Positions 25,580 to 50,031 of a stretch of DNA of 64,000 bases are shown piece after piece (position 1 is the stretch's first letter; every line of letters begins with the position of its first letter). The stretch lies in the NCBI GenBank assembly GCA_964486065.1, contig CAZAKN010000005.1, positions 60 to 64,059 on the forward strand. Reading direction: 5' to 3'. The position numbers were made by a program, and so were the translations under genes. The notes under the pieces are model-generated. The model worked only from the letters and a program-made list of their open reading frames with translations. It was not told where the DNA came from and did no database searches. The DNA comes from an uncultured Gammaproteobacteria bacterium (GTDB lineage: Bacteria; Patescibacteriota; Patescibacteriia; UBA11705; JABHMO01).

Positions 25580-25594
25580 GAATAATATATCAAT

Positions 25595-27380: not shown

Positions 27381-27396
27381 ATTATTGCGTCAAATA

Positions 27397-27426: not shown

Positions 27427-28041
27427 TTATCTGGTGCAGTTGATGACTGCACACATTTTTTCTACCACTTGCTCCAATGTTAAACCTGAAGAATCTATCA
27501 AGATGGCGTCCGTGGCTTGTTTGAGCGGTGAGATTTTTCTGGTTTTGTCCGTGAGGTCTCGCTCGGTCAAAGTTTTTCGCACTTGTTCCAAAGTAATATT
27601 TTGTTTATTTTTTACATCATGAAATCTTCTTTTAGCTCGAGTTTCCGGATCCGCGGTCAGAAAAAACTTAAATTCCGCTTGAGGAAAAATAACAGTGCCT
27701 ATATCGCGACCTTCCATGACAATATTTTGTTTATTAGCGATTTGTTTTTGCGCGCGTTCCACCACTTGGCGCAGTTCGGGAATCATACTGTAGTCTGCCA
27801 CGGCTTGATTTACTTGTTTACTGAATAATCCTGTTTGCGGAATGTTTTCAAAATCAACGGTTTTGGCTAAGGCGACGGCTTGTGAAACATCTTCCGGTTT
27901 TACTTTGTTTTGCAAACACAAATAAGCGATACGACGATAAAAATTGCCGGTATTAACATGAACAAAATTCAGTTTTTCGGCTAATTTGGCGGCGGTACTG
28001 CTTTTGCCCGCGGCCGAAGGACCGTCAATGGCGACTATCAT
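27427..28041 (-). CDS. cmk: Cytidylate kinase
   Basis: MIVAIDGPSAAGKSSTAAKLAEKL P-loop and a CMP-binding NMP domain. Full-length collinearity with Cmk. Confidence 0.9.
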   Translation of the reverse strand: MIVAIDGPSAAGKSSTAAKLAEKLNFVHVNTGNFYRRIAYLCLQNKVKPEDVSQAVALAKTVDFENIPQTGLFSKQVNQAVADYSMIPELRQVVERAQKQIANKQNIVMEGRDIGTVIFPQAEFKFFLTADPETRAKRRFHDVKNKQNITLEQVRKTLTERDLTDKTRKISPLKQATDAILIDSSGLTLEQVVEKMCAVINCTR

Positions 28042-28132
28042 GATAAGGAGTTATTTCAGGGCTATTTTAACAAATTTTGCACTTAACGACAAACATTGGG
28101 TAATTTTGAAATTTAGTGTAAGATAATAATGT

Positions 28133-29482: not shown

Positions 29483-29488
29483 TTCCTT

Positions 29489-30964: not shown

Positions 30965-30992
30965 ATATAAATAATTAAATAAAAATAAAATT

Positions 30993-35617: not shown

Positions 35618-36035
35618 TATGTTTAAAAAGTTTTTAATAATTATCTTGATTTGCAGTTGGTTATTGCCTTTCGGCGCAATGGCAAAAGAAACATCGGGCA
35701 ATAATTGTCAATTTGCCAATGATTGGAGCTTGTTGCCCGTAAAGTGCACGCAATCAACTTACAGTGAGGCGATAGAATGCGGTTTGGAGGAATTGCAATG
35801 CACTTTGATTCGTTTTGCCACCATAATTTTACGCTTGGCCGGGTCAGCCGCGCTCTTAATGTTTGTTATCGGAGGAATAATGTATATTCTTTCCGGCGGG
35901 GATCAGGGAAAAGTCCAGAAAGCTACCGGTTTTTTGAAATACGCGACCATAGGTTTGGCCATGATATTATTATCAGGCTTTTTTATCAGAGTTCTTTTGG
36001 AAGTTTTAACCAATAAAGGAGTATCATATAATTAA
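35601..36035 (+). CDS. VirB2/TrbC-like (T4SS-pilin-like) small secreted two-TM protein, paralog 1
   Basis: Signal peptide, Cys-containing ectodomain, then a TM1-GG..(K/Q)..A-TM2 core (AALLMFVIGGIMYILSGGDQGKVQKATGFLKYATIGLAMILLS). Confidence 0.5.
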   Translation: MKVLDNMFKKFLIIILICSWLLPFGAMAKETSGNNCQFANDWSLLPVKCTQSTYSEAIECGLEELQCTLIRFATIILRLAGSAALLMFVIGGIMYILSGGDQGKVQKATGFLKYATIGLAMILLSGFFIRVLLEVLTNKGVSYN

Positions 36036-36036
36036 T

Positions 36037-36471
36037 ATGAAATATAAGATTCTTTGTTGTGTAGTAATATTATTAAGTGTTTTTTTCTTGAGCTTGGATT
36101 TTTCTTTTGCTAAAGATTCGGCGGAAGCTAAAGATTCGGCGGAAGCTAAAGCGATTAAAGAAATTAGTAACTTGCAAAGAGATCTTGGTTTGACACTTGG
36201 CCATAATACCAATATTACCATAGGCAATTTTATCAAAGCTTTTTGGGGAATATTGGGATCAATTTCTTTGGCTGTTTTTTTGTATGGTGGTATAATGTGG
36301 ATGATCTCAGAAGGGGATGATACCAAAATAACCAAAGCCAAAAAGACCATGATTTGGGCGGCTTTGGGCTTGTTGGTTATGTTTACTTCTTATGTGATCA
36401 TTGAATTTTTAATAGATACATTGGGGAAACAGGATATTGGTTTTCACTATATTTCCAAATATATTATTTAA
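36037..36471 (+). CDS. VirB2/TrbC-like pilin-like protein, paralog 2 (contains AKDSAE tandem repeat)
   Basis: Core LAVFLYGGIMWMISEGDDTKITKAKKTMIWAALGLLVMF. An 18-bp tandem duplication gctaaagattcggcggaa x2 encodes AKDSAEAKDSAE. Confidence 0.5.
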   Translation: MKYKILCCVVILLSVFFLSLDFSFAKDSAEAKDSAEAKAIKEISNLQRDLGLTLGHNTNITIGNFIKAFWGILGSISLAVFLYGGIMWMISEGDDTKITKAKKTMIWAALGLLVMFTSYVIIEFLIDTLGKQDIGFHYISKYII

Positions 36472-36501
36472 TATTTAATTTAATAATTAATCATTAAAGC
36501 C

Positions 36502-36888
36502 ATGATTAACATTACAAAAGTAAAAGTGGTGGCCAAAGTCGCTTTTATGGTTTTTCTGCTTTTCGCGGTAGCTATGCCGGCCTTTGCTCAATTAGATTTG
36601 GGATTGGGAGAAGTAGGAGAAGCTACGGAGCTTGGAGATACGGATATTCGTACAACAGTGGGATCCATTATCAATGCTGCTTTGGGCTTCTTGGGCGTTG
36701 TCGCGGTGGTCATTGTTTTGATCGGTGGGTTTAAGTATATGATTGCCGGTGGCAGTGAAGACAAAGTGGCTGAAGCGAAAAAATGGATTATTTCCGGAAT
36801 TATCGGTTTGGCCATTATCTTGAGCGCTTATGCGATCACTACATTTGTAGTTGGCGAGTTGATTTCAGCAACTACGGGAGTAGAATAA
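36502..36888 (+). CDS. VirB2/TrbC-like pilin-like protein, paralog 3
   Basis: Core VVIVLIGGFKYMIAGGSEDKVAEAKKWIISGIIGLAIILSAYAITTFV. Confidence 0.5.
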   Translation: MINITKVKVVAKVAFMVFLLFAVAMPAFAQLDLGLGEVGEATELGDTDIRTTVGSIINAALGFLGVVAVVIVLIGGFKYMIAGGSEDKVAEAKKWIISGIIGLAIILSAYAITTFVVGELISATTGVE

Positions 36889-36900
36889 TCTTCTTAAATA

Positions 36901-36925
36901 AGGGAGGGCTTCGGCCCTCCCGGAG
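36901..36925. terminator. GC-rich hairpin (gggagggc ttcg gccctccc) inside the pilin-like array; possible terminator or processing site
   Basis: 8-bp perfect GC stem with tetraloop. The downstream U-tract is weak. Confidence 0.35.
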
Positions 36926-36965
36926 CTCCTATTTCATTCAGCCATTAGATAATTAGTTTAGTTAT

Positions 36966-37427
36966 TTGATGATTGTTATGAAAAAGAAACTATCTTTATT
37001 GAGTTTTTGCATACTTGTTTTCTTAATGATGGTTTTTGGTTCCATGCCCGCAATGGCGGACAATTATTTGCAACAGGGTTTGGATTATACGGCGAAGCAG
37101 GCGACTTTGATGGATGATTCAGTGGAGGCAGGAGGGGGAAAACAGATTAGTGAAAGAATCGGTTATTGGTTGGGAAGAGTTATGTCTTTTATTGGTATTT
37201 TGTTTTTGGTTTTAATTTTATATGGCGGACTTATGTGGCTAATCAGTCGTGGCGATAAAACTAAAATAGCCAATGCTAAAAGCATTATAATTGATGCCAC
37301 GATCGGTCTTTTGATCACCATGTCCGCTTATGCTATTGTTAACGGTTTATTTGATGTTTTTAAAAATAATAATTTAGGTGAAACTGTTGGAAAAGCAAAT
37401 GTGGAAAATAATAAGAAAATGGTATGA
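36966..37427 (+). CDS. VirB2/TrbC-like pilin-like protein, paralog 4
   Basis: Core LVLILYGGLMWLISRGDKTKIANAKSIIIDATIGLLITMSAYAIV. Confidence 0.5.
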   Translation: MMIVMKKKLSLLSFCILVFLMMVFGSMPAMADNYLQQGLDYTAKQATLMDDSVEAGGGKQISERIGYWLGRVMSFIGILFLVLILYGGLMWLISRGDKTKIANAKSIIIDATIGLLITMSAYAIVNGLFDVFKNNNLGETVGKANVENNKKMV

Positions 37428-37840
37428 AAAAAGTAAAAAAAATTTATCAAATATCATTATTGGCAATATTTTTATTTTCATTTCTTTTGCCTTTGCAAAG
37501 TGTAATGGCTCAGGGAGATAGCGCACAGGAAATGGCTGACCAGGGATTGCAAGTATCTGCCGGCAAAGCCGGATTGACCGCAGCGCCGGTGGAACAAATA
37601 GTGGGAAATATTATTGGTTATATGTTAAGTTTTATAGGCTTGGTTTTGCTTGTAATGATTGTTTACGGTGGTATTTTGTGGTTGACGGCCGGCGGCAAAT
37701 CTGACCAATTGGAAAAAGCCAAATCGGTTTTGGCTAATGCGGTTATCGGTTTGGCTATAGTTTTGTTGGCCTATAGTTTTACTTTCTATGTTACTTCTCG
37801 TTTTACCGCAGCCACTCAAACTACAGAACAAACTCCTTAA
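37424..37840 (+). CDS. VirB2/TrbC-like pilin-like protein, paralog 5
   Basis: Core MIVYGGILWLTAGGKSDQLEKAKSVLANAVIGLAIVLLAYSF. Its start overlaps the previous stop (ATGA). Confidence 0.5.
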   Translation: MKKVKKIYQISLLAIFLFSFLLPLQSVMAQGDSAQEMADQGLQVSAGKAGLTAAPVEQIVGNIIGYMLSFIGLVLLVMIVYGGILWLTAGGKSDQLEKAKSVLANAVIGLAIVLLAYSFTFYVTSRFTAATQTTEQTP

Positions 37841-37848
37841 TTATACCT

Positions 37849-38259
37849 ATGAAATATTTAATTAATTCAAAAGTAAAAAGTTTTACAGTTATTATTGCGA
37901 TTTTTTGTATTTTACTATTAGGTTTTGGATCTGTTGTATCAGCGCAAGATCCGCAAAGTAAACTGCAAGGAGCGTATAAAGCATCATTTGGTCAAGAATT
38001 GAATGATCCGGAAAACCTTTTCACTCAGCAAGTCGGTGGTATTATTAGGATTATTTTAGCTACAGTGGGTACGGTGTTTGTGGTTGTTTTAGTTTACGCG
38101 GGATATTTGTGGTTAACGGCCGGTGGTAATGATACGCAACTGGCCAAGGCGAAAAGTTTAATGATCAATGGAGTCATTGGTTTGGCCATAACTTTGGCCG
38201 CGTATTTGATTTCCGATTATGTCTTTATTCGTTTGGTGGCGTCCACGGTCGGAGGATAA
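37849..38259 (+). CDS. VirB2/TrbC-like pilin-like protein, paralog 6
   Basis: Core VLVYAGYLWLTAGGNDTQLAKAKSLMINGVIGLAITLAAYLISDYV. Confidence 0.5.
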   Translation: MKYLINSKVKSFTVIIAIFCILLLGFGSVVSAQDPQSKLQGAYKASFGQELNDPENLFTQQVGGIIRIILATVGTVFVVVLVYAGYLWLTAGGNDTQLAKAKSLMINGVIGLAITLAAYLISDYVFIRLVASTVGG

Positions 38260-38261
38260 AT

Positions 38262-38711
38262 ATGAAAATGAAAAAAATAATATTTATTTTAATTATTATC
38301 ATGTTGGTCGTGCCGTTTTTTTCACAAGCGGCGGGAACTTTTGATCCGAAAGGAGATTTAGCGCAAGCTGAAAAGGGACTTTATCAAGGCGCTCAGCCCA
38401 CTTCTTTACCGGTATATATCGGGATGATTATCAGATATGTTTTGGGGACTGTGGGAGTTGTTTTAACCGTAATTATCGTTTATGCAGGATTTTTATGGCT
38501 GACGGCCGGTGGTAATTCAGACCAAGTCGGAAAAGCTAAAAAATTATTAATTAACGGTTTTGTCGGGTTATTGATTACTTTGGGGGCGAATTCAATAGCA
38601 CATTTTGTTATTGACAGATTAACTGATAATTCGCAACCAAATGAATGGGTGGAAATAGGTGAACAACCATATAAACCTTTAAGCGAACAAGTAAGAGACG
38701 GAGATTTATGA
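38262..38711 (+). CDS. VirB2/TrbC-like pilin-like protein, paralog 7
   Basis: Core IIVYAGFLWLTAGGNSDQVGKAKKLLINGFVGLLITLGANSIAHFV. Confidence 0.5.
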   Translation: MKMKKIIFILIIIMLVVPFFSQAAGTFDPKGDLAQAEKGLYQGAQPTSLPVYIGMIIRYVLGTVGVVLTVIIVYAGFLWLTAGGNSDQVGKAKKLLINGFVGLLITLGANSIAHFVIDRLTDNSQPNEWVEIGEQPYKPLSEQVRDGDL

Positions 38712-39115
38712 AAAAGATATTATTAATTTTTTTAATTGTCAGCATATTGTTTTCATTAAAAATTGTCCCTGCGGAGGCTAAGAGTGGGCAAGACTTTGTT
38801 AATGATTTACGACAGGGTTCGGAAAATGTGGGTGCCAAGGGGTTCGGAGAAACCGGTGGAAGTAGCCAGTTGACATATAGAATCGGTACTTGGATTCAAA
38901 TAGTCTTGGGTACTTTGGGTATAATTGTGGTGGTAATTATCCTTTACGCCGGCTTTTTATGGATGACCGCCGGAGGCAATACCGATCAAGTCGGGAAAGC
39001 TAAAAGCTTATTGATCAACGGAGCAATAGGATTGCTTATAGCCATTAGTGCGTATGCCATAACGGATTTTGTTCTGGATAGGTTTGTGGAAGACGCTCAA
39101 GTTCAAGAGCGTTGA
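38708..39115 (+). CDS. VirB2/TrbC-like pilin-like protein, paralog 8
   Basis: Core IILYAGFLWMTAGGNTDQVGKAKSLLINGAIGLLIAISAYAITDFV. Confidence 0.5.
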   Translation: MKKILLIFLIVSILFSLKIVPAEAKSGQDFVNDLRQGSENVGAKGFGETGGSSQLTYRIGTWIQIVLGTLGIIVVVIILYAGFLWMTAGGNTDQVGKAKSLLINGAIGLLIAISAYAITDFVLDRFVEDAQVQER

Positions 39116-39164
39116 TTGAAATATTAAATATTTGCTATAATATTTTTAATAATAATTAAAAAGA

Positions 39165-39566
39165 TTGCGTTTTATGAAAAATATTTTTATTGTTTTGGCC
39201 ATGCTGTTCTTGGTTTTGTTCAGCGCCAACGCGGTTTTCGCTATCAGCGATGATGTCGCCAGGGAAATAAGAGGAGGAGCCGATACTATCGGTAATGTGG
39301 GATTTGGAGAGTCAAGTGGTGAAGGAGAATTATTGTCAAACAGAATCGGCGGAATAATTAAAGCGGCTTTGGGCTTGGTGGGTGTTATCGTAGTGGTGAT
39401 AATTGTTTACGCCGGCTTTTTATGGATGACCGCCGGAGGCAATACCGATCAAGTTGGGAAAGCCAAAAGCTGGTTGATTAACGGTGTTATCGGTTTGGTT
39501 TTGGTTTTAAGCGCTTACGCTATCACGGATTTTGTTATCAGCAGATTGATTGAAGCATCCGCATAA
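39165..39566 (+). CDS. VirB2/TrbC-like pilin-like protein, paralog 9
   Basis: Core IIVYAGFLWMTAGGNTDQVGKAKSWLINGVIGLVLVLSAYAITDFV. Shares a 48-nt identical DNA stretch with paralog 8. Confidence 0.5.
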   Translation: MRFMKNIFIVLAMLFLVLFSANAVFAISDDVAREIRGGADTIGNVGFGESSGEGELLSNRIGGIIKAALGLVGVIVVVIIVYAGFLWMTAGGNTDQVGKAKSWLINGVIGLVLVLSAYAITDFVISRLIEASA

Positions 39567-39645: not shown

Positions 39646-40653
39646 TTATTTCAACTGTTTTTTAAAGTGTTCCACCAGTTCCACGGGTGCCGGATCAATA
39701 CCTTTGTTTATGGCCAACCGATAAGAAGTCCATAATCCCAAAGACAAAGTTTGTAAAAATTTATCAAAGGCATCATCTCCCGGCATAGTAATGATTTTCG
39801 TGGCAATTTTATTGCCTAAAATATTTTGAAAAACTTGCATGCGCTTTTTATTTCTTTCAGCTGTTTGATTGTCTTGCAAAATAATAATTTGATAATCAGC
39901 CAAAAGGTCGGTAAATCCCACCATTTCATTATGATTCAATTCCGGAAAAACATTATAAAAACTCTGAGTTTTGGCGTTTTCGTTAAAATTGATTTTCCAG
40001 ACCATGGCCAATGCTTGCCAAGTCGTATCGGTATAGATAAGCGGAATTTTGCCGTTCAGATCGGTGGCCAGATCCTCCGCGACTTCAAGTAAATCAATAT
40101 TTTGCGCCAGCGCTTTTTCAATGCTTTGGTTAAGTTGATTATAATCAAGAGCAATACAACCGCTATCATGCATTATTTTCAATAACGCGCCGATGGTGTA
40201 ACCATAGGCCAAGCGAGGCTGTTTCGTGTCCGGAATGGAGATATAAGCATAATTGTTTTGTTCCGCGATTCTTTTCAGTTCTCCGTCATGAGCAAAAATA
40301 ATTATTTGTTTTAAACCGATTTTTTTCGCTTCTTGCAAAGTAGCTAAAGTTTCTTCCGTATTGCCGGAATATGAATTAAAGATTCCGATCCAATTCTCAT
40401 CAACTTCCGCTGGTAAACTGTAATTTTTATTGATAATGAATTTTTGTTTTAACGATTCTTTTAAATGAGGTAAAAGCATTAAAAAAAGATCGGCCGGTAA
40501 GGCTGATCCTCCCATTCCACAGAATACAATATTAGCATCTTTGGCGGTTAGCTTTAAATTAACTTCGGCAAACGCATTTTTAAATTGATTTGGTAAGTTC
40601 TCAATTATTGAGTGGATATTTTGAGAATCCAAATTGTTTTGCGTTTTTGGCAT
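39646..40653 (-). CDS. Bifunctional phosphoglucose/phosphomannose isomerase (SIS-domain, archaeal-type PGI/PMI family)
   Basis: SIS motif IVFCGMGGSALPADLF. 335 aa, collinear with the bifunctional PGI/PMI family. Confidence 0.65.
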   Translation of the reverse strand: MPKTQNNLDSQNIHSIIENLPNQFKNAFAEVNLKLTAKDANIVFCGMGGSALPADLFLMLLPHLKESLKQKFIINKNYSLPAEVDENWIGIFNSYSGNTEETLATLQEAKKIGLKQIIIFAHDGELKRIAEQNNYAYISIPDTKQPRLAYGYTIGALLKIMHDSGCIALDYNQLNQSIEKALAQNIDLLEVAEDLATDLNGKIPLIYTDTTWQALAMVWKINFNENAKTQSFYNVFPELNHNEMVGFTDLLADYQIIILQDNQTAERNKKRMQVFQNILGNKIATKIITMPGDDAFDKFLQTLSLGLWTSYRLAINKGIDPAPVELVEHFKKQLK

Positions 40654-40913
40654 AAGAAAAAAATGAGGTATAAATTAAACTTATCAAATCGTTTTGATTC
40701 CTGCAAAGCATTTATTCACATATTACGGATGAATCCGTTGATTTTCCGCAGGTTGACGGGATCCGATAAAATTTGTTTGACAGCTTGATTTTCAGCTTGG
40801 TATTTGATATGATTTAAATGCTATTTTTAGCTTAATTTTGTAATAATTAATGAGAATAAACAGGGAAAGTTAATATTAATCAATCAAATATTAACTTTTT
40901 TGCATTTAACAAT

Positions 40914-41627
40914 ATGAGCGGACATAGTAAATGGGCCAAAATACATAGGCAAAAAGGCGCGGCTGACGCCAAGCGAGCGAATTTATTCACTAAATTATCA
41001 AAAAATATCACTCTGGCTGCCAGGAATGGCGGAGATCCGGAGATGAATTTTGCTTTGCGTTTGGCCGTGGATAAAGCCAAAGCCGCTAGTATGCCAAAAG
41101 ATAATATTGAGAAAGCCATTAAAAGAGGTACGGGTGAATTGGATGGAGAAGCTTTGGAAGAAGTGATGTATGAAGCGTATGGTCCGGGAGGGTTGCCTTT
41201 ATTGATTGAAGGCGTTACGGACAATAAAAATCGTACCACTCCCGAAGTTAAAGCGATTTTAACGAAAAACGGCGGTAGTCTCGGAGCGCAGAATTCGGTT
41301 AAATGGATGTTTGAACATAAGGGAGTTATTTTTATAAACAATCAAGAAATAGAGGATAAAGATGATTTTATTATGCAAATGATTGATGCCGGAGCTGAAG
41401 ATGTGAGAGAAGAAGATGACGGATTGACCATATATACCGGTTATGAAGATTTTGAAAAGGTTAAAAAAGTAATTGATGAAAAAAACATTGGATTTGAATA
41501 TGCGGAAATGGATTGGATCTTAAAAGACGAACAAGAAGTGGAAAAAGATGCGGCGGAAAAGTTGGAAAAAATAATTGAACTCTTAGAAGACCATGATGAT
41601 GTAAATTCGGTGTATAGTGTTTTATAG
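40914..41627 (+). CDS. yebC: YebC/PmpR-family DNA-binding transcriptional regulator
   Basis: N-terminus MSGHSKWAKIHRQKGAADAKRANLFTKLSKNITLAAR matches the YebC family. In the conserved yebC-ruvC pair. Confidence 0.9.
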   Translation: MSGHSKWAKIHRQKGAADAKRANLFTKLSKNITLAARNGGDPEMNFALRLAVDKAKAASMPKDNIEKAIKRGTGELDGEALEEVMYEAYGPGGLPLLIEGVTDNKNRTTPEVKAILTKNGGSLGAQNSVKWMFEHKGVIFINNQEIEDKDDFIMQMIDAGAEDVREEDDGLTIYTGYEDFEKVKKVIDEKNIGFEYAEMDWILKDEQEVEKDAAEKLEKIIELLEDHDDVNSVYSVL

Positions 41628-41645: not shown

Positions 41646-42137
41646 ATGTCAAAAATAATTTTGGGCGTTGATCCCGGCTATGGCATCACTGGATATGGAA
41701 TTTTACAAGTCAACGGTTCCCAAATGAAATGTTTGCAATATGGAGTAATAACAACTCCGGCTGAAGTTGATTTTGCTTGGCGTTTGCATGATTTACACAA
41801 TGATTTGAAAAAAATAATTATGCAATACAAGCCCAATGTTGTGGCGGTTGAAGAATTGTTTTTTTATAAAAATGTAAAAACAGCCATTAATGTCGGACAA
41901 GCCAGAGGCGTGATTATGTTAACCGCCATGCTCGCCAAACTACCTGTTTTGGAATGTACGCCTTTGCAAGTCAAGCAAGCCATAACCGGATACGGTAAGG
42001 CCGATAAGTCCCAGGTTCAGCAAATGGTGAAAAATTTTTTAAAACTTGAAAACATACCCAAACCGGATGATGCCGCCGATGCTTTGGCGGTTGCCATTTG
42101 GGCCGCGCACGCGGAAAAACTAACAAAACATTCTTAA
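41646..42137 (+). CDS. ruvC: Crossover junction endodeoxyribonuclease RuvC
   Basis: ILGVDPGYGITGYGIL RNase-H-like fold start and catalytic acidic residues. 163 aa. Confidence 0.9.
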   Translation: MSKIILGVDPGYGITGYGILQVNGSQMKCLQYGVITTPAEVDFAWRLHDLHNDLKKIIMQYKPNVVAVEELFFYKNVKTAINVGQARGVIMLTAMLAKLPVLECTPLQVKQAITGYGKADKSQVQQMVKNFLKLENIPKPDDAADALAVAIWAAHAEKLTKHS

Positions 42138-42141
42138 ATTT

Positions 42142-43710
42142 ATGAAAAAAATTTTTTTAGCAATATTGATTATCTTGTTTGCCATGCCTTTTGTGTCGGT
42201 TTACGCTCAAGAAGTTCGGCAAGAAAGCCAAGAACAAGTCGTGGAAATAAAAGCGGAAGCGGGTAGCGATAAAAATGTTATTGTAAACAGGCAAGTTTCT
42301 TTCAGTTCAATAGGTTCGGTGGTGCAAGGAGAAGTTGGCGAAATTAAATATGTTTGGAACTTGGGTGATGGAACCGTATTACAGGGAGAAGAAATAGTTC
42401 ATACATATTCCCAGGCCGGAGTATACAGAGTTAAACTGATAATTTCCGGGAAACATGAAGAAAACGAATTAGTATCAGAGGATGAAATTATAGTTAATGT
42501 GGACAAAGATATTTTGGTCTTGATTACTGATCAAAGCGTGGATGATAAACAACTGTCTTTGATCCAAAACTTGGCTTCTTCGCAAGGAATTTTATTAGTA
42601 AAAATTCAAGAAACGGAAAATCAAATTGATTATGTTGCGGAAAAAGAATTGGCGCAAAAAATCATTAAAAATAAAGATGAAATTTTACAAGCCGGAGGAG
42701 TGGTAATCTGGACTTCCGGAAACATGGGCGTAAATTCTTTTCTGGAAGCCGGACAAGTTTTATCGGCGGAAGATAACGGGACCAAACTAAGTGATTTTGG
42801 TTTTCAAAATAAGCATATTGTTGTAATAACCGAACAAAACTTTACCGCGGCCGCCAAATTGTCTCAAAATTTATATAATATTTTGGAACCGCAATTTATC
42901 GTTTTAACTCATGAAGATGCCAAAGACGAAGTTTTTTTAAGTTCAAATATAAACGATTTATTAACCAAATTACAAAACAGTGAAACGGATTATAAATTGG
43001 TCGGTTTGCATACCAAAAGAGAATTGAGCGAAAAAGGGTATTGGAATTTTTTGTCGCGTATTGTCAGTTACATGGTTGACAGAGGAGTGCCTTTAAACAC
43101 CATATATTTGATTTTGGTTTTACCGGTAATTGCTACGATTTTAGCTTTTACGCGTCAAGTTATAGGGATCAAAGCTTTGGGTATTTATGCGCCTTCAATC
43201 GTGGCGGTTTCATTTTTGTCCACGGGTTTGGAATATGGTTTGTTGATTTTTTTGATAACTTTATTGGTGGGAACATTAACTAGAATTTTTGCTCGTAAAG
43301 TCAGGCTTTCATATTTACCTCGCATGGCCAATGTGCTTATCTTGGTGAGTTTCGCGGTTTTATTCATGTTTTGGGTTGGAGCTTATTTGGGCAAAAGTTC
43401 CATGATCAGTATTTCCGTTTTTCCGATTTTGATAATGGTTTTATTGACCGAGAAATTCATTAACGCTCAGATTGAACGAGGTAGTAAGGCAGCGGTTGTA
43501 TTGGTTTTGGAAACTTTGATGTTATCCATGGCTTGTTATTTTTTGGCCAATTGGCAAACTTTGCGAATTTTTGTATTGGCATATCCCGAGCTGGTTCTTT
43601 TGACCATAATAATTAATATCTTAATCGGTAAATGGAAAGGTTTGCGACTTTTGGAATATTACCGATTTAGAAAAGTAATAAAAAATGTTGAGTTACTTGA
43701 GAAAAAGTAA
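42142..43710 (+). CDS. Secreted PKD-domain protein with C-terminal polytopic (about 7 TM) membrane region (7TM_transglut-like partner of RimK-like ligases)
   Basis: Signal peptide. PKD-like segment KYVWNLGDGTVLQGEEIVHTYSQAGVYRVKLII. The C-terminal 220 aa has six or seven TM helices (AFTRQVIGIKALGIYAPSIVAVSFL...). Confidence 0.45.
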   Translation: MKKIFLAILIILFAMPFVSVYAQEVRQESQEQVVEIKAEAGSDKNVIVNRQVSFSSIGSVVQGEVGEIKYVWNLGDGTVLQGEEIVHTYSQAGVYRVKLIISGKHEENELVSEDEIIVNVDKDILVLITDQSVDDKQLSLIQNLASSQGILLVKIQETENQIDYVAEKELAQKIIKNKDEILQAGGVVIWTSGNMGVNSFLEAGQVLSAEDNGTKLSDFGFQNKHIVVITEQNFTAAAKLSQNLYNILEPQFIVLTHEDAKDEVFLSSNINDLLTKLQNSETDYKLVGLHTKRELSEKGYWNFLSRIVSYMVDRGVPLNTIYLILVLPVIATILAFTRQVIGIKALGIYAPSIVAVSFLSTGLEYGLLIFLITLLVGTLTRIFARKVRLSYLPRMANVLILVSFAVLFMFWVGAYLGKSSMISISVFPILIMVLLTEKFINAQIERGSKAAVVLVLETLMLSMACYFLANWQTLRIFVLAYPELVLLTIIINILIGKWKGLRLLEYYRFRKVIKNVELLEKK

Positions 43711-45085
43711 AAAGGTTTTGGGCATGAATGCCCGTAATTTGTCTTTCATTCGGCCGAGCAACTCAAAAAAAGCGGTTCGTTTGGTTGATGATAAATTGCG
43801 CAGTAAAGAAGTTTTGAGAAAAAACGGATTACCGACTGTTGAACTTTTGGGCGTGGTCAGGAACCGCAAAGAATTTTACAAATTCCCTTGGCATAAATTG
43901 GAAAACAGTTTTGTTCTAAAGCCCAATCGTGGTTTGGGTGGTGGCGGAATCTTGGTTACTTACGGACGCAAGAAAAACGGTCGTTGGGTTTTGCCGAATA
44001 ATAAAGAAGCGGAATTGAAAGATGTTATTTTACGCGTATCCAATATTTTGGACGGAGATTTTTCTAAAACCAATATTCCGGACAGTGCTTTTTTTGAAGA
44101 AAGATTAAAAATTCATCCGGCTTTTAAATTATATTGTTATAAAGGCGTGCCGGATATTCGGGTGATTGTTTACAATAAAGTCCCGATTATGGCTATGCTC
44201 AGATTGCCAACCAAAAATTCTGATGGAAGAGCCAATTTGCATAAAGGAGGTATTGGTGTGGGTATTGATATTGAATCAGGCATTACTACGCATGCCATAC
44301 AATATGATAGAGAAATTGAATATTTACCTGAAATGAAGTTGCCCTTGCGTGGTTTGCAAATCCCGGAGTGGAATAATATTTTGGAATTGGCGGTTAAGTC
44401 CGTTGATGCTTGCGGTTTGAATTACGCAGGTGTTGATTTGGCCGTGGACAAAAAAAAAGGCCCGGTTATCATGGAATTGAACGCTCATCCCGGTTTGTCC
44501 ATTCAGATCGCCAACATGGCGCCACTTAAAGATCGTTTAAAACGCGTAAAAGGATTAAAAATTCGCACCGCGCAAAAAGGTATCAGTGTGGCCAAGGAAT
44601 TGTTTGGTGGAGATCTGGCTCAAGAAGTTAAAGAATTGACCGGCAAAAAAATAATCGGCATTATTCATCAAATCGGGGTGAAGAAAAAAAGTGAAAAAAA
44701 ATTTACTACCGTTGAAGCAAAAGTGGATACCGGAGCGGGGATTACCGCAATTGATGAAGAATTGGCCAGACAATTGGGATTCGCGGAGGCCATTGAATAT
44801 TATCATTCTTTTAATATAAAGAGAGTGCTTACAAAAGAAGAAGTGGACGAGCTAAGTGAAAAACAGGTTTGGAAAGAAATAGTAAAACATAAAGACATTG
44901 TGGAAGTCGTGAAAATATTCAGCAGTCATGGTATTTCTTATCGCATTGAAGTCCCATTGGTCATTAAATTGGCGGGACATGAAATACATTGTCATGCATC
45001 TGTTATTGAAAGAGAAAATTTGAAATACCCGGTGATTTTGGGAAGAAGAGATTTGAATAAATTTTTAATAGATCCCGGTAAATAA
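43685..45085 (+). CDS. RimK-like ATP-grasp amidoligase (alpha-L-glutamate-ligase-related) fused to C-terminal retropepsin-like Zn_protease/DUF785 domain
   Basis: N-terminal LGMNARNLSFIRPSN motif and ATP-grasp core (NYAGVDLAVDKKKGPVIMELNAHPGLS). C-terminal segment FTTVEAKVDTGAGITAIDEELARQLGF ... YPVILGRRDLNKFLIDP is retropepsin-like. The probable start is the ATG at 43724. Confidence 0.6.
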   Translation: MLSYLRKSKKVLGMNARNLSFIRPSNSKKAVRLVDDKLRSKEVLRKNGLPTVELLGVVRNRKEFYKFPWHKLENSFVLKPNRGLGGGGILVTYGRKKNGRWVLPNNKEAELKDVILRVSNILDGDFSKTNIPDSAFFEERLKIHPAFKLYCYKGVPDIRVIVYNKVPIMAMLRLPTKNSDGRANLHKGGIGVGIDIESGITTHAIQYDREIEYLPEMKLPLRGLQIPEWNNILELAVKSVDACGLNYAGVDLAVDKKKGPVIMELNAHPGLSIQIANMAPLKDRLKRVKGLKIRTAQKGISVAKELFGGDLAQEVKELTGKKIIGIIHQIGVKKKSEKKFTTVEAKVDTGAGITAIDEELARQLGFAEAIEYYHSFNIKRVLTKEEVDELSEKQVWKEIVKHKDIVEVVKIFSSHGISYRIEVPLVIKLAGHEIHCHASVIERENLKYPVILGRRDLNKFLIDPGK

Positions 45086-45117
45086 TCAGTGGAAATAATC
45101 ATTAATTCAATATTATT

Positions 45118-46125
45118 ATGTTAAAACCGGAACAATTTAATTATTTCAGTACATATTTGCTGGGAGCTGAAGCTGAGAGCCGAGGAATTAAAGTTACCAA
45201 AATTTTTACCAAAGGAGGATTGGCAAAACACAGTCATTTGGTTTTAACTTATAAAAAACATGAAGAGGTTATAATCGGACAAAGAACTCGTCAAACCGAT
45301 TGCATCGGATATTGGATTTCAAAAAATAAACAAGTCGCCAAATATTTCTTTTCCAGAGCCGGTTTGCAAGTTGCTAAAGGTGGAATTTATGACGCCAATG
45401 ACATGGATGAAATAACCAAACAAGCCAAAAGGATCAAATATCCCGTGGTATTGAAGCCGGTGGCGGGGATACAAGGAACGAAAGTTTTTTTGGGAGTTGA
45501 TTCGGATAAAAAATTGAAAAAAATAATTAAAGAAAATTTTAAAGGAAAGGTTCTTTTGGAAAAAGAATATTTTGGTAAAGAGTATAGGCTTTTGGCAATT
45601 CGCGATAAGTTTTTAGCGGCCATTTATCGTGTACCTGCCAATGTTCAAGGTGACGGAATTCACGGTATAAAAGATTTGATTGAATTGAAAAATAAAGATC
45701 CGAGGCGAGGTTCCGGACATAAGAAGAGCTTGGTCAAGATTAAAATTGACGGAATTGTCAAAGATTATTTAAAAAAACAAGGAAAAAAATTATCTTCCGT
45801 ACCCAACAAAGATGAAATTGTTTATCTTCGTCCCAATTCCAATATTTCCACGGGAGGAGATAGTATTGATGTAACGGACTTGGTTAATCCAGAGGTGAAG
45901 AAGTTGGCTGTTAAAGTTATTAAGTCCATTCCGGGCTTGGCTTATGGTGGGATTGATTATTTGACCAAAGATATTACCGCTAAGCCGACTACCCGCAATT
46001 ATATTGTTATAGAAGTCAATGATTCCCCCATGATTTCCATGCATCATTTCCCGTATCAGGGTAAAGAAAGAAATGTGGCGGCGTCGATAATTGATCAAAT
46101 TTTTCCGGAAACCAAAAATAAGTAA
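45118..46125 (+). CDS. Cyanophycin-synthetase-N-domain-like ATP-grasp ligase (no Mur-ligase domain), paralog A
   Basis: YPVVLKPVAGIQGTKVFLGV; ANVQGDGIHGIKDLIELKNKDPRRGSGHKKSLVKI; NISTGGDSIDVTDLVNPE; VIEVNDSPMISMHHFPYQGKERNVAASIIDQIF. These are collinear with the CphA ATP-grasp B/C subdomains. Confidence 0.6.
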   Translation: MLKPEQFNYFSTYLLGAEAESRGIKVTKIFTKGGLAKHSHLVLTYKKHEEVIIGQRTRQTDCIGYWISKNKQVAKYFFSRAGLQVAKGGIYDANDMDEITKQAKRIKYPVVLKPVAGIQGTKVFLGVDSDKKLKKIIKENFKGKVLLEKEYFGKEYRLLAIRDKFLAAIYRVPANVQGDGIHGIKDLIELKNKDPRRGSGHKKSLVKIKIDGIVKDYLKKQGKKLSSVPNKDEIVYLRPNSNISTGGDSIDVTDLVNPEVKKLAVKVIKSIPGLAYGGIDYLTKDITAKPTTRNYIVIEVNDSPMISMHHFPYQGKERNVAASIIDQIFPETKNK

Positions 46126-46128
46126 AAT

Positions 46129-47058
46129 ATGAAAAATGAATTTAATGATTTTTTATGTGAATATGCCGAGAAAAAAGGCATTATTTGTGAAAAAGTGGAT
46201 AAAGGCGCTGAATTTGTTTTATTAAAAAAAGGTGGAAAGAAAAAATTGATTTATGGAGGAGTGGTGACGGATCAATCCGCGGCGACGGGATATGTTTTGT
46301 CTAAAAACAAGTTTTTTACACATGAATATTTAAAAAAGAACAAATATCCGGTTTTACCGAAGATTAGAACCAACAAATATTCCGAAGCTGAAAAATTTTT
46401 AAATAAACATAAAGTTGTTGTTGTTAAACCTCCTTTTTTGAAACAAGGCAAAGGAATATCAGTTAATTTGAAAACCAAAAAAGATTTGCGTCAAGCTTGG
46501 AATTTAGCTCGTAAATACGCCGGCAATATTATTGTTGAAAAATTTTTCGCGGGAGAAGATTTAAGGGTTTTAGTGATTGATTATAAACATGTTTTCGCCG
46601 TAAAAAGATATCCGGCTTATGTGATGGGTGATGGGAAAAGTAATATTAAAAAATTGATTGAAATAAAAAATAGAAAAGGCTATCCTGGTAAAAGATTTAA
46701 AAAAATCATGATAGATAATGCTTTGCGAATGTTTTTAAAACAATCAAAACTGACTTTGCAAAATGTGCCTGCGGAAGGCGAAAAAGTGGTAGTGAGAGGA
46801 ACCGCAAATGTGCATACAGGTGGAGAAACGGAAGGTTTTACCGATAGTTTAAGTTCAGATATAAAAAAACAAGCCATTGCTTTAGCCAAAGAATTAAGAT
46901 TACCCGTTGTCGGAGTTGATTACCTGGTCTCGCCAAATCAGAAAACCAAGTATATAATTGAATTAAACGCTGATCCCGGTTTTAAATTGCATCATTTCCC
47001 TATTTTGGGAAAACCGGAAGATCCAACTGAAAAATTTTTACAAATGATATTTAAATAA
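46129..47058 (+). CDS. Cyanophycin-synthetase-N-domain-like ATP-grasp ligase, paralog B
   Basis: YVMGDGKSNIKKLIEIKNRKGYPGK ... VHTGGETEGFTDSLSSD ... IIELNADPGFKLHHFPILGKPEDPTEKFLQMIF. Same architecture as 45118-46125. Confidence 0.55.
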   Translation: MKNEFNDFLCEYAEKKGIICEKVDKGAEFVLLKKGGKKKLIYGGVVTDQSAATGYVLSKNKFFTHEYLKKNKYPVLPKIRTNKYSEAEKFLNKHKVVVVKPPFLKQGKGISVNLKTKKDLRQAWNLARKYAGNIIVEKFFAGEDLRVLVIDYKHVFAVKRYPAYVMGDGKSNIKKLIEIKNRKGYPGKRFKKIMIDNALRMFLKQSKLTLQNVPAEGEKVVVRGTANVHTGGETEGFTDSLSSDIKKQAIALAKELRLPVVGVDYLVSPNQKTKYIIELNADPGFKLHHFPILGKPEDPTEKFLQMIFK

Positions 47059-47059: not shown

Positions 47060-49981
47060 TTGAAAAATATGCCACATATGCATTACCGAAGTCCCAGACC
47101 CAGAGGATCATTTTCTTCAAGTCCCGGAGGAGGAGGTGGAAATTGGTTTAAAAAAATTTGGCGCTCTTTGAAGTCTTTTTACAAAAGACATAAAAAGCCC
47201 ATTAACAAAACTTTAAAAAGACTCTTATTGCTGGGAGTAATCTGTTTTATTTTGTTTTCTATTTATGTTTTGGTAGCGTTTGCTTGGTATTCGCGTGATT
47301 TACCGGATCCAAATAAAGTTATTGAACGCAATATTTCTCAAAGCACCAAAATTTATGATCGCACGGGAGAGCATTTGCTTTATGATGTTCATGGAGATGA
47401 AAAAAGAACTTTGGTTAAATTAGAAGATATTCCTGATATGATTAAATGGGCGACCATTTCCGCGGAAGATAAAAATTTTTATGAACACCATGGATTCAGT
47501 CCGTTGGCTATATTTAAAGGCGCGGTGATAGATCCTTTAATGGGGAAAAGAGCTCGTGGCGGGTCAACGCTGACTCAGCAATTCGTAAAAAATTCTTTAT
47601 TGACCAATGAACGCAGTATTTCAAGAAAAATTAAAGAATTGGTTTTGTCTTATAAAATTGAAAACATGTTTTCAAAGGATGAAATATTGCAAATGTATTT
47701 GAATGAAATCCCTTACGGTTCAGTGGTTTACGGAATTGAGTCTGCGGCGCAAACATTTTTTGGCAAATCCGTTCAAGAATTGACTTTGGCGGAAATTACG
47801 GTGTTGTCCGGTTTGCCACAATCGCCGACTTATTATTCTCCTTATGGCTCTAATTTTGACGCTTTGAAAAATCGTCAAAAATATGTTTTGGATCAAATGG
47901 TGGCCAATGATTATATTTCTCGTGAGGAAGCTGACGAGGCTTTTCAAGAAGAACTTGTTTTCACGGAACAAAAGAACGCTATCCAAGCGCCACATTTTGT
48001 TATGTATGTGAAAGAATTATTGGCTGAAGAATTGGGCGAAGATTTATTGGAAACAGGTGGTTTAAAGGTTCTTACCACTTTGGACATGGATAAGCAAAGG
48101 ATCGCCGAAGAAGCGGTGGAAAATGGTGTTAGTACCAAAGGTGAATATTATGAATTCCACAACGCGGCCTTGTTGTCTCTTGATCCGCGAAATGGACAAA
48201 TTTTGGCTATGGTTGGTTCTCGTGATTATTTTGATCGCGAAAATGACGGCAATGTTAATGTTACTTTGCGTCCACGACAACCCGGTTCTTCCATGAAACC
48301 ATTGGTTTATACGGCCACTTTCCAAAAAGGTTATACTCCCAATACGGTTTTGTACGATACTGTCACTACTTTTAAAACCGATACCAAAGATTACCGACCG
48401 CTTAATTATGATTTAAGAGAACACGGTCCGGTAACCATTAGAAAGGCTTTGCAAGGATCACTGAACATTCCCGCCGTGAAAGCCACTTATTTGGTGGGGA
48501 TTGAAAAAGTTTTGGATTTTTTGGAACTTATGGGTTACAACACTTTTGAAGATCGCCATCGTTTTGGGTTGTCCATTGTTTTGGGCGGAGGAGAAGTAAC
48601 ACTTTTGGAACACGCGGCCGCTTATGGCGCCTTGGCCAATGGCGGAGTTTATCATGAGCCGTCGGCAATTCTACGAGTGGAAGATAGTCGTGGTAATGAG
48701 CTTATGCGGTTTGAAGAAAATGAACGCAAAGTCATGGAGCCCAATTACGCATACATTATTTCTAATGTTTTGTCGGATAATGGCGCTCGTGCGTATGCTT
48801 TCGGTTTACAAAACCATTTAACTTTGGGTGAAAGACCGGCGGCGGCTAAAACCGGTACCACCAATGATTATCGTGACGCGTGGACCATGGGATATACTCC
48901 TTCCTTGGTAGCCGGAGTTTGGGCGGGGAATAATGATAATTCGGAAATGAAGCGAGGTGCCACCGGTGGAGAGATAGCGGCTCCCATTTGGAATGAATAT
49001 ATGCGTCGCGCTTTGGAAGAAACAGAAATTGAATATTTTCCGAACGCTTCAATCCCTCAAACCGGCAAACCGATTTTAGACGGAGATGTGATGCCGGAAG
49101 TTACTTTGAAAATAGATAAATTCACCGGCAAGTTGGCAACGGATTTGACACCGGAATCATATATTGAAGAAAAAAAATATCGCCAAGCGCATAGTATTTT
49201 GCATTATGTTTACAAAGATAATCCGCGTGGCACCGTGCCGGAAGACCCCGCGTCAGCGGACCCCGCTTATCAGTATTGGGAAAGCGGTATTCAAGAATGG
49301 CTTAAGAAAAAAGCCGAGGAAGAAGGTGAAAGCGATATTGAGATTTCAGAAGAAGAGCCTCCGACCGAATATGACGACGCGCATACGGAAGAAAATCGTC
49401 CCACCATATTTATAAATTCTCCCGACAGCAATGAACGGATTGACAGTGAAACTTTAACCGCCAGAGTGAATGTTTCCGCTCCGCGGGGAATAGGCAGAGT
49501 GGAGTATTATTTGGATGATAAATTGATTCAAACAGTTACTGGCAGACCATATTCGTTAAATTACAGTTTGAGCAGTTATTTTGGTAAAGGTTATCATACT
49601 TTGCGAGTCGTGGCTTATGATGATATTGACAATTCCAATGAGGCGACCGTGGAAATAAATATTACCGCGGATATTGATGAACCGTCGGTTATTTGGCGAT
49701 CTCCGCGCAATCATCAAATTTTCAGGCAAGCTGATTTTCCGGTTACCATTAGAGTTACATTGACTGATTTGATGGTGACAAAACAAGCCAAATTCATTGA
49801 GAAGAAAAAAGGAGAATCAGAAGAAAGAATGATCTCCACGGTTATTTCTCCGGATAGTCAAGATCAAGTGATTAATTGGGGTAGCGCCTTTGAAAGAGGT
49901 GAATATGAATTGATCGTGGAAATTACGGATATGAATAATAATAAATATCGCAGTTTGGTCAGAGAGATTGTGGTTAATTAA
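47060..49981 (+). CDS. Class A penicillin-binding protein (PBP1A-type bifunctional transglycosylase/transpeptidase) with C-terminal Ig-like extension
   Basis: GT51 motifs EDKNFYEHHGF, RGGSTLTQQ. Transpeptidase motifs SSMKPLVY (SxxK), SLN, KTGTT. A roughly 250-aa C-terminal beta-rich extension. Gly/Ser-rich cytoplasmic N-terminus. Confidence 0.85.
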   Translation: MKNMPHMHYRSPRPRGSFSSSPGGGGGNWFKKIWRSLKSFYKRHKKPINKTLKRLLLLGVICFILFSIYVLVAFAWYSRDLPDPNKVIERNISQSTKIYDRTGEHLLYDVHGDEKRTLVKLEDIPDMIKWATISAEDKNFYEHHGFSPLAIFKGAVIDPLMGKRARGGSTLTQQFVKNSLLTNERSISRKIKELVLSYKIENMFSKDEILQMYLNEIPYGSVVYGIESAAQTFFGKSVQELTLAEITVLSGLPQSPTYYSPYGSNFDALKNRQKYVLDQMVANDYISREEADEAFQEELVFTEQKNAIQAPHFVMYVKELLAEELGEDLLETGGLKVLTTLDMDKQRIAEEAVENGVSTKGEYYEFHNAALLSLDPRNGQILAMVGSRDYFDRENDGNVNVTLRPRQPGSSMKPLVYTATFQKGYTPNTVLYDTVTTFKTDTKDYRPLNYDLREHGPVTIRKALQGSLNIPAVKATYLVGIEKVLDFLELMGYNTFEDRHRFGLSIVLGGGEVTLLEHAAAYGALANGGVYHEPSAILRVEDSRGNELMRFEENERKVMEPNYAYIISNVLSDNGARAYAFGLQNHLTLGERPAAAKTGTTNDYRDAWTMGYTPSLVAGVWAGNNDNSEMKRGATGGEIAAPIWNEYMRRALEETEIEYFPNASIPQTGKPILDGDVMPEVTLKIDKFTGKLATDLTPESYIEEKKYRQAHSILHYVYKDNPRGTVPEDPASADPAYQYWESGIQEWLKKKAEEEGESDIEISEEEPPTEYDDAHTEENRPTIFINSPDSNERIDSETLTARVNVSAPRGIGRVEYYLDDKLIQTVTGRPYSLNYSLSSYFGKGYHTLRVVAYDDIDNSNEATVEINITADIDEPSVIWRSPRNHQIFRQADFPVTIRVTLTDLMVTKQAKFIEKKKGESEERMISTVISPDSQDQVINWGSAFERGEYELIVEITDMNNNKYRSLVREIVVN

Positions 49982-49996
49982 ATATAAATAAAATAG

Positions 49997-50031
49997 AAAG
50001 CCTCGCCGATTAGGGCGAGGCTTTTGTTTTT
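49997..50031. terminator. Bidirectional terminator hairpin (aaagcctcgcc gatta gggcgaggcttt + T-run)
   Basis: 11-bp perfect stem between the convergent PBP1A gene (+) and the 50031-50264 gene (-). Confidence 0.6.

Follow-up and report, generated by a model that had tools for sequence, protein, structure and literature searches.

The four genes described here, from a 64,000-nt stretch of DNA of an uncultured Patescibacterium (the window, to which all unlabelled coordinates refer), form a new and widely conserved Patescibacteria variant of the Rlo/Rim-type systems. They encode an RloB-like membrane protein with a seven-transmembrane (7TM) bundle, a fusion of an RloC-type ligase with a retropepsin-like protease, and two stand-alone ATP-grasp ligases. 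To the reading that they constitute a membrane-coupled, template-free module that adds acidic peptide tails and then trims them we give roughly even odds (a probability of about 0.5). The domain identities, the topology, with the ligase–protease in the cytoplasm, and the linkage of the 7TM gene to the fusion gene are established. An earlier note on this DNA had described four co-oriented, tightly packed genes, and they lie exactly where it placed them:

42142-43710, + strand: gene 1, open reading frame (ORF) of 522 amino acids (aa), RloB-like membrane partner
43685-45085, + strand: gene 2, ORF of 466 aa, ligase–protease fusion
45118-46125, + strand: gene 3, ORF of 335 aa, stand-alone ATP-grasp ligase of the CphA-G-domain type
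46129-47058, + strand: gene 4, ORF of 309 aa, second, more diverged ATP-grasp ligase of the CphA-G/Ngg/GshF type

The overlap between genes 1 and 2 is 26 nt; it shrinks to 14 nt with an alternative start, chosen by an independent gene caller, that makes gene 2 462 aa long. Gaps of 32 nt and 3 nt separate gene 2 from gene 3 and gene 3 from gene 4, respectively. Matches by hidden Markov model (HMM), profile and structure uphold the domain assignments that the note had made for all four genes.

The Rlo system is the rloABC operon of Pseudomonas aeruginosa (Lormand et al., mBio 2025, PMC12239564). Its RloA proteases are retropepsins that are secreted and cut stretches of at least eight glutamates; a triple rloA-protease mutant dies in low-salt medium and is impaired in cell shape, in biofilm formation and in its tolerance of beta-lactams, and deletion of rloB (encoding a 7TM inactive transglutaminase) or rloC (encoding an ATP-grasp enzyme) suppresses the defects caused by protease loss, both genes being epistatic (PMC12239564). 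The system is tied to hypo-osmotic/osmotic stress, its authors speculate on a link with peptidoglycan, and 96% of RloB matches come from Proteobacteria (PMC12239564). The triad of ligase, protease and 7TM protein, which the earlier note regarded as functionally uncharacterised, has therefore since acquired a studied representative. Our literature search found no paper on the expanded architecture or on the system in Patescibacteria, in agreement with the note's statement that this architecture had not been characterised.

Conservation was examined in a scan of one genome per species, which found relatives of gene 2 encoded in at least 589 pattern-matched stretches. The best 80 loci were analysed (relatives' loci from the scan carry L-numbers, L001 etc.), and the locus counts given below use only those among the 80 with enough flanking sequence. 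Both halves of the fusion are present in all 80 best loci, and a 7TM gene is located immediately upstream of the fusion, often overlapping it, in 76 of 77 loci, which bears out the co-occurrence in related genomes that the note had anticipated. Among the best 120 database relatives of gene 2, nearly all are 450-505 aa long and most have precomputed PF14397 and PF05618 matches; where named, they belong to Kuenenbacteria, Falkowbacteria, Moranbacteria and other Patescibacteria. Such recurrence in dozens of independent genomes is not a chance pattern; thus, the gene cluster is real and widely conserved in Patescibacteria, or Candidate Phyla Radiation (CPR).

The ligase–protease fusion and its membrane partner

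Gene 2 comprises the following elements:

43733..44584, + strand: RloC-type ATP-grasp domain, residues 17-300, from ATPgrasp_ST, TIGR02291 and Foldseek matches
44648..45082, + strand: retropepsin-like domain, residues 322-466, from a profile search against the PDB
44726..44737, + strand: catalytic DTGA motif, D348-A351, with K346 before the motif, from the translation

The first half matches both families that mark RloC, namely ATPgrasp_ST (PF14397; 2e-66, 224.5 bits, cut-off 31.4) and TIGR02291, 'alpha-L-glutamate ligase-like' (3.3e-84, 282.6 bits). The LGMNARN motif and the segments VDTGAGITAIDEELARQLGF and ILGRRDLNKFLIDP, which the earlier note had quoted, are all present in the translation. 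In the AlphaFold2 (AF2) model (mean predicted local distance difference test score, pLDDT, 86.4) the top Foldseek match is RimK (5zct, 1e-11), and the residues of the Mg/ATP motif do not vary among 40 homologues with 49–71% identity to gene 2. Whole-model Foldseek returned ATP-grasp matches only, and the retropepsin half was judged by a domain-profile search of PDB sequences. Identification of gene 2 as a true RimK or RimBK was rejected: the RimK equivalog NF007764 gives 31.5 bits (cut-off 331) and TIGR00768 64.9 bits (cut-off 143.4), RimK sequences in the PDB match at 5e-5 over only 39 residues, and the domain order is the reverse of that in RimBK.

As a single sequence, the C-terminus of gene 2 remains below the threshold of PF05618 (23.4 bits, cut-off 27). 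However, a profile of 20 sequences of this domain matches the solved PF05618 structures 9g58 (4e-8), 9g59 (4e-7) and 2pma (3e-6), so that the retropepsin/DUF785 fold, and with it the fusion proposed in the note, proves to be real. In the profile alignment the counterparts of K46, D48, R114 and R137 of P. aeruginosa RloA (numbered as the 9g58 chain plus 20) are K346, D348, R420 and R443 of gene 2; in RloA these residues comprise the catalytic Asp and those that coordinate polyglutamate, and they are needed both in vitro and in vivo (PMC12239564). D348, G350, A351, R420 and R443 are invariant in the 40 homologues, and the position of K346 is occupied by Lys or Arg in all of them. Gene 2 thus shares with RloA the PF05618 domain, the catalytic DTGA and the polyglutamate-binding Lys/Arg. 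Judging from these residues and those of the ligases, the genes look catalytically competent and the polyglutamate-binding residues of the protease are conserved. RloA is secreted with a signal peptide from a separate gene, whereas here a 466-aa protein carries the protease as its C-terminal domain.

This protein has neither a signal peptide nor a TM segment, and its N-terminus is basic and non-hydrophobic, which places both of its predicted activities in the cytoplasm. At L092 (6001-9673, in a 1.6-Mb contig that is apparently non-CPR) the same gene order is found as three separate genes, encoding a Transglut_core + 7TM protein (758 aa), an ATPgrasp_ST protein (314 aa) and a 128-aa DTGA retropepsin that also lacks a signal peptide. 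Cytoplasmic proteases in this type of system are therefore not confined to Patescibacteria.

Although the fusion stands, a protease–ligase hybrid as such has a precedent. RimBK (Little et al., JBC 2025, PMC11957791) is a natural RimB–RimK hybrid in which the protease is N-terminal (RimB residues 1-163), that is, in the opposite order and with a ligase of another ATP-grasp family. RimB cuts polyglutamate tails and also stimulates the synthesis of poly-alpha-glutamate by RimK, and the Rim target is ribosomal protein S6 (PMC11957791). Together with the cytoplasmic location of the ligase–protease, the RimK/RimB and RimBK precedents (PMC11957791) speak for a reading in which a cytoplasmic protein receives the tail, as S6 does from RimK or as in tubulin tyrosination or glutamylation, the peptidases reverse the modification, and the 7TM protein is a regulator or sensor. 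Such tailing would also suit the presence, in some clusters, of genes above the rimK_fam cut-off (176 vs 143 bits) and, in related clusters, of MATCAP-type carboxypeptidases, which belong to the tubulin detyrosinase family. However, gene 2 is far from the RimK equivalog (see above), its strict pairing and frequent overlap with the 7TM gene point to a membrane-linked role, and the cluster encodes no candidate acceptor with an acidic C-terminus. We therefore consider tailing of a cytoplasmic protein unlikely.

Gene 1 is divided as follows:

42244..42504, + strand: PKD domain, residues 35-121, predicted extracellular
42508..43029, + strand: juxtamembrane alpha/beta domain, residues 123-296, with a flavodoxin/receiver-like fold
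43039..43704, + strand: seven-helix bundle, residues 300-521, with a basic cytoplasmic tail, from Pfam 7TM_transglut and AF2 helices

The PKD ectodomain and 7TM region described in the note were recovered by HMM (PKD_4, 2.4e-13, with Pfam PKD also matching; 7TM_transglut, PF14402, 1e-29) and by an AF2 model built from 40 homologues (pLDDT 83.7), which consists of an N-terminal signal/TM helix, a beta-sandwich (residues 35-121), an alpha/beta domain (123-296) and seven membrane helices (300-521). The NCBIfam RloB model NF052267 matches gene 1 over positions 305-507 only, which is the 7TM part, with 79 bits (cut-off 900), and the first 300 positions of the model are unmatched. The seven-helix 7TM_transglut region of RloB is therefore present in gene 1 by all three lines (PF14402, NF052267 305-507 and AF2). 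In place of the inactive-transglutaminase ectodomain there are PKD and flavodoxin-like folds; gene 1 has no Transglut match in Pfam, and its AF2 model contains no papain/transglutaminase fold. The note's view that PKD replaces the transglutaminase can be refined by alignment. Residues 125-509 of gene 1 align at 30% identity with residues 364-740 of a 751-aa Transglut_core + 7TM protein, and the juxtamembrane domain is thus retained, being common to the Transglut_core-containing 7TM relatives. Distant relatives of 740–758 aa have, in order, Transglut_core, the middle domain of gene 1 and the 7TM bundle.

As a feature of the system, the PKD ectodomain seen in this window turned out to belong to a minority: a long PKD-type ectodomain occurs in 8 of 76 loci, the remaining proteins (around 218 aa) being the 7TM bundle alone. 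Because most relatives are such bare 7TM proteins, the ectodomain of gene 1 is accessory. A basic C-terminal tail motif, GLRLxEYxRFRKV, is conserved in gene 1 (43630-43707) and its homologues, whose tails mostly end in Lys; the motif is a candidate site at which the ligase or a polyanionic product could dock.

The obligatory 7TM partner (76/77 loci) and the predicted extracellular PKD and alpha/beta domains of gene 1 raise the question of export. Pfam calls ATPgrasp_ST 'sugar-transfer associated' and connects the family with the synthesis of cell-surface polysaccharides. A poly-alpha-Glu or Asp-rich polymer might be exported by the 7TM protein to the surface after the fused protease has set its length; its fixed charges would buffer ions or osmotic changes there, or it would form a layer resembling a capsule. 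The Pseudomonas protease works extracytoplasmically, and its loss is lethal in low-salt medium (PMC12239564); the substrate that depends on RloC and RloB must therefore reach the periplasm in that organism. Export of a polyanion is nevertheless improbable here, since the protease faces the cytoplasm and the majority of relatives lack an ectodomain, and export is not known from any system. A fold search with the 7TM bundle gave no solved structural match, and the bundle is unlike any solved transporter.

Two accessory ATP-grasp ligases

The cyanophycin synthetase model TIGR02068 matches genes 3 and 4 only over positions ~160-476 of its 862 (293 and 216 bits, respectively; cut-off 850), and the G domains of solved CphA1 structures are matched by gene 3 (7lgm, 8.5e-54) and gene 4 (7wac, 2.6e-30). 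Homology extends over the entire G domain, including the G-omega insert, and the two genes are 32% identical to each other. They are, as the note had it, truncated CphA-type ATP-grasps without the Mur-ligase half, but the motif string on which it relied is complete in gene 3 only and has diverged in gene 4, which has no DPRRG.GH. PRK02471 (GshAB; 226 and 170 bits for genes 3 and 4) and TIGR03103 (Ngg; 122 and 193 bits) also match, in their C-terminal ATP-grasp parts only (434-755 and 243-545, respectively) and far under the curated cut-offs, and neither gene has the GshA or GNAT N-terminal domain. Assignment to Ddl or GshB was rejected, with 16–40 bits overall against cut-offs of at least 243 (Ddl models, 23–40 bits vs 243–246 or more; GshB, 22.6 bits vs 272); the genes are thus not the ordinary Ddl or glutathione-synthetase enzymes that the note had allowed for.

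Substrate-binding and catalytic residues of TeCphA1 (PMC9427784) were mapped onto genes 3 and 4 by alignment. Both genes keep the ATP, Mg and acyl-phosphate residues K220, K261, R309, D431 and E450 and look like active ligases. They also keep the pair R323/N394, which in TeCphA1 binds the side-chain (beta-) carboxylate of the incoming aspartate (PMC9427784). Glu215, which binds the arginine branch of cyanophycin (PMC9427784), is replaced by Trp in gene 3 and by Val in gene 4. The position of His267 is Gln in both genes and that of Ser396 is His in gene 4; Gly456/Arg458 are Met/Ser in gene 3, and gene 4 keeps Gly456 and has Lys for Arg458. Of the features of CphA1, therefore, the G domain with its catalytic residues is present, whereas arginine-branch recognition, the Mur-ligase-like M domain and the N domain are absent. 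Synthesis of cyanophycin was rejected on these grounds: lacking Glu215 as well as the M and N domains, genes 3 and 4 are predicted not to elongate cyanophycin and to be unable to make it, and they probably do not bind it. The short cyanophycin-like polymer that the note had offered as one possible product is accordingly disfavoured. Members of the subfamily in related loci have other combinations of residues at the substrate positions, which suggests that amino-acid specificity has diversified within it.

Because phmmer with genes 3 and 4 missed most of the divergent accessory ligases of other genomes, the ORFs between the fusion and the downstream gene for a class A penicillin-binding protein (PBP) were clustered, and representatives were annotated. 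The number of accessory ATP-grasp genes in this interval is zero in 7, one in 23, two in 21 and three in 7 of 58 loci, and L003, L089 and L091, outside this count, have four. The extension of the cluster by two ATP-grasps, correctly described for this window, is therefore one state of a variable set. CphA-G-like ligases occur in 19 of the 58 loci; the others comprise several RimK/LysX-like groups, among them one above the rimK_fam cut-off (176 vs 143 bits), and one biotin-carboxylase-like group. Carboxypeptidases of the MATCAP/DUF1704 type (PF08014, 51 bits) are found in 7 of the 58 loci, where they form a related family with a QEGLA motif, and in L089 (4604-6037 and 10239-11948) and L091 (3539-4972), where they lie within the clusters with four extra ATP-grasps; no PBP gene is near these two expanded clusters. 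Extra stand-alone retropepsins are present in L010, L015 and L054. In L006 a 495-aa relative of gene 3 (8001-9488) is a CphA-G-like ligase fused to a PF05618 retropepsin of its own (31.8 bits); it stands directly behind the ligase–protease fusion, and three glycosyltransferase genes come after it.

Genes 3 and 4 might alone make a small product, such as an osmolyte resembling glutathione or N-acetylglutaminylglutamine amide (NAGGN), or a cyanophycin or poly-Asp reserve, and be merely adjacent to the Rlo-like pair. Their best families are indeed cyanophycin synthetase, GshAB and the NAGGN synthetase Ngg (for gene 4, TIGR03103 at 193 bits), and the Rlo system is linked to osmotic stress (PMC12239564). 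However, the matches cover the ATP-grasp part only and lie far under the curated cut-offs, HMM scans show no GshA, GNAT, AsnO-like, Mur-ligase or CphA N domain, and Glu215 is lost. Furthermore, all six CphA-G-like proteins whose genomic location was checked are encoded inside this cluster, and one is fused to the same protease domain. An independent product is therefore very unlikely.

Genomic neighbourhood and a probable transcription unit

The genes and signals flanking the cluster are as follows:

40785..40813, + strand: promoter-like site, TTGATT-17-TATGAT with TG upstream, ahead of yebC, from a consensus scan
40914..41627, + strand: yebC/TACO1-family gene (Pfam TACO1_YebC_N and Transcrip_reg), upstream neighbour with conserved synteny
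41646..42137, + strand: ruvC (Pfam RuvC, 4.8e-53), conserved upstream neighbour, ending 4 nt before gene 1
47069..49981, + strand: class A PBP gene (Pfam transglycosylase, transpeptidase and Big_7), start from the gene caller
49996..50025, + strand: terminator-like hairpin of 12 bp with 7 G-C pairs, then a T-run, directly 3' of the PBP gene

The tight spacing and the promoter-like and terminator-like pattern matches suggest a single transcription unit from yebC through the PBP gene. The latter begins 10 nt past the end of gene 4 and is probably co-transcribed with it. Between yebC and the end of the PBP gene there is no comparably strong hairpin, the other + strand matches in this interval having 5–6 pairs only. 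The site at 40785..40813 is a possible start of the unit; as evidence it is weak, because such sites show no enrichment relative to shuffled sequence. The yebC gene belongs to the conserved surroundings and is probably no functional part of the system.

In other genomes ruvC lies upstream in 55 of 64 loci, and a class A PBP gene lies within 6 kb downstream in 47 of 54, on the same strand in 44; the three inverted cases are L019, L033 and L039, where the PBP gene is adjacent but on the opposite strand. This proximity invites the explanation that the ATP-grasps add side-chain or cross-bridge residues to a peptidoglycan precursor (lipid II or UDP-MurNAc-peptide), that the 7TM protein binds the lipid-linked precursor and the class A PBP polymerises it, and that the number of ligases reflects lineage-specific bridges. 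The PBP gene in the window, of the PBP1A type, follows gene 4 by only 10 nt, with the only strong terminator behind it, the ligase repertoire differs among lineages, and Rlo mutants of Pseudomonas have cell-shape, beta-lactam and hypo-osmotic phenotypes (PMC12239564). However, the linkage of ruvC and yebC to the cluster is about as close as that of the PBP gene, and the neighbourhood may therefore be inherited gene order rather than a functional link. Seven of the 54 loci, like L089 and L091, have no PBP gene nearby, and at three loci no accessory ligase stands between the fusion and the PBP gene. Moreover, the RloC, CphA-G and RimK families are known for acting on peptide alpha-carboxylates and not on side chains of the stem peptide, and a polyglutamate-type endoprotease would have no obvious role. 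Peptidoglycan bridge synthesis is thus quite improbable as the function of the cluster.

A scan of the window for MATCAP-like, biotin-carboxylase-like and further RimK-like genes outside the cluster found none. A defence system or mobile element was rejected without a direct test, as neither the domain content nor the conserved chromosomal position gives a hint of one. The genes at 18–34 kb were considered as a mur/dcw cluster, and this was also rejected; they are genes for polysaccharide synthesis, GGDEF, HD-GYP-like and L,D-transpeptidase proteins instead. The region 18361-32147 contains cyclic-di-GMP-type signalling and envelope genes, among them a GGDEF protein (18361-20925), Wzx-like, GT4 and Wzy-like polysaccharide genes (21636-25579), a PAS + HD_5 (HD-GYP-like) protein (28133-29482) and an FG-GAP + YkuD L,D-transpeptidase (29489-30964). 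At 35601-39566 is a tandem array of nine paralogous small genes (128–153 aa); eight of eight scanned, 38708-39115 being left out of the scan, match PF18895 T4SS_pilin and are TrbC-VirB2-like. The array is directly upstream of a PGI-like gene (39646-40653, - strand), and one T4SS_pilin-like gene is likewise found upstream of the cluster in L001.

Proposed mechanism and comparison with known systems

In the module that we favour, the RloC-type half of gene 2 would use ATP to add amino acids, most likely glutamate, one by one to a C-terminal carboxylate, and would so produce an alpha-linked acidic chain that is free or attached to an acceptor. The retropepsin half, once dimerised, would cut this polyanionic chain and so limit, recycle or stimulate its synthesis, as RimB does with RimK. 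The 7TM protein of gene 1 would be the obligatory membrane partner, serving as anchor, acceptor or export route. Genes 3 and 4 may extend or cap the same product with other, possibly acidic, residues; we propose this role because the three characterised members of the CphA-G/GshF/Ngg type all attach a single amino acid to a short peptide at its C-terminus. The variable ligases, together with the endo- and carboxypeptidases of related clusters, favour a writer/eraser logic on peptide tails over a soluble metabolite, and the joint presence of ligases and peptidases fits a cycle of addition and removal. The amino acid used, the acceptor, export and the link to the PBP are the parts of this model that we infer.

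Several points weigh against it. To our knowledge, no RloC-type ligase, that of Pseudomonas included, has a demonstrated product, acceptor or activity, and 'glutamate ligase' is the name of a family, not an assayed function. The score of gene 2 with TIGR02291 is under the curated cut-off (282.6 vs 314.2 bits), a shortfall due to a linker that replaces the last 23 model positions. Retropepsins need dimerisation, and the dimer of gene 2 is putative. The protease is fused to a cytoplasmic enzyme here and secreted in Pseudomonas; its site of action is therefore another one, and the system may also follow a different logic. There is no acidic run of five or more residues in the ORFs of the window, and a search for acidic C-termini on the cluster proteins and the 7TM homologues found none, the 7TM tails being basic; no acceptor is therefore evident. 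The specificity proposed for genes 3 and 4 is drawn from two conserved residues, and other substrate-contact positions differ. Finally, accessory ligases are missing from 7 of 58 loci and are therefore not essential to the core function.

A more specific form of the model would be a membrane-anchored, template-free writer/eraser peculiar to Patescibacteria, making a short hetero-peptide rather than polyglutamate alone, with a sequence set by each lineage's accessory ligases, on an envelope acceptor and in concert with the co-transcribed class A PBP. The acceptor would be the 7TM protein itself, a lipid-linked precursor or peptidoglycan. We regard this version as speculative and rather unlikely; if true, it would be a previously unrecognised route of peptide decoration of the cell envelope in bacteria with very few biosynthetic pathways.

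The Rlo system influences how Pseudomonas tolerates antibiotics, forms biofilms and survives osmotic stress. As a natural minimal and rearranged version, the Patescibacteria variant narrows the models of what RloC and RloB make. It indicates that the core consists of the 7TM bundle and the ligase–protease fusion only, the ectodomain being dispensable, and that the protease can work on the cytoplasmic side. Its recruitment of additional ligases for C-terminal amino acids, joined in relatives by MATCAP-type carboxypeptidases, points to a peptide-tail cycle and not to a small metabolite. Furthermore, the variant is widespread and adjoins the gene of the main peptidoglycan synthase in organisms with almost unstudied envelopes, and a ligase–protease in a single polypeptide would be convenient for in vitro work.

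Like the rloABC operon, the cluster combines a TIGR02291/ATPgrasp_ST ligase (RloC), a 7TM_transglut protein (RloB) and a PF05618 retropepsin (RloA) in one operon, and gene 2 keeps the catalytic Asp and the polyglutamate-binding Lys/Arg. It differs in that the protease forms the C-terminal part of a cytoplasmic ligase protein and lacks a signal peptide, whereas RloA is secreted; in that gene 1 has a PKD domain instead of an inactive transglutaminase and most relatives have no ectodomain; in the further ATP-grasp ligases, two in this window; and in its host, a Patescibacterium. With RimK/RimB and RimBK it shares an ATP-grasp ligase accompanied by a cytoplasmic polyglutamate-type retropepsin, of which a natural fusion exists. 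However, the Rim systems have no 7TM partner, and in gene 2 the ligase precedes the protease and is of the RloC type, without the RimK N-domain.

Genes 3 and 4 keep the ATP, Mg and acyl-phosphate residues and R323/N394 of the CphA1 G domain (7lgm, 7wac), but they have neither the N domain nor the Mur-ligase-like M domain, and Glu215, His267 and Arg458 are changed. They belong to the same ATP-grasp subfamily as Ngg and the C-terminal ATP-grasp of GshF/GshAB, which lengthen a short peptide by a single residue at its C-terminus; unlike these, they stand alone, without a GshA or GNAT partner domain. The tubulin code, in which TTL/TTLL ATP-grasps add C-terminal tails and MATCAP and CCP peptidases remove them, offers an analogy only: MATCAP-family genes occur inside related clusters, but this window has neither a MATCAP gene nor an evident acceptor protein, and the ligases are of other ATP-grasp families. 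Thus, the cluster is not RloABC sensu stricto, as it has no transglutaminase domain and no secreted protease, nor is it RimBK or a cyanophycin synthetase; it is a Patescibacteria variant of the Rlo/Rim type in its own right.

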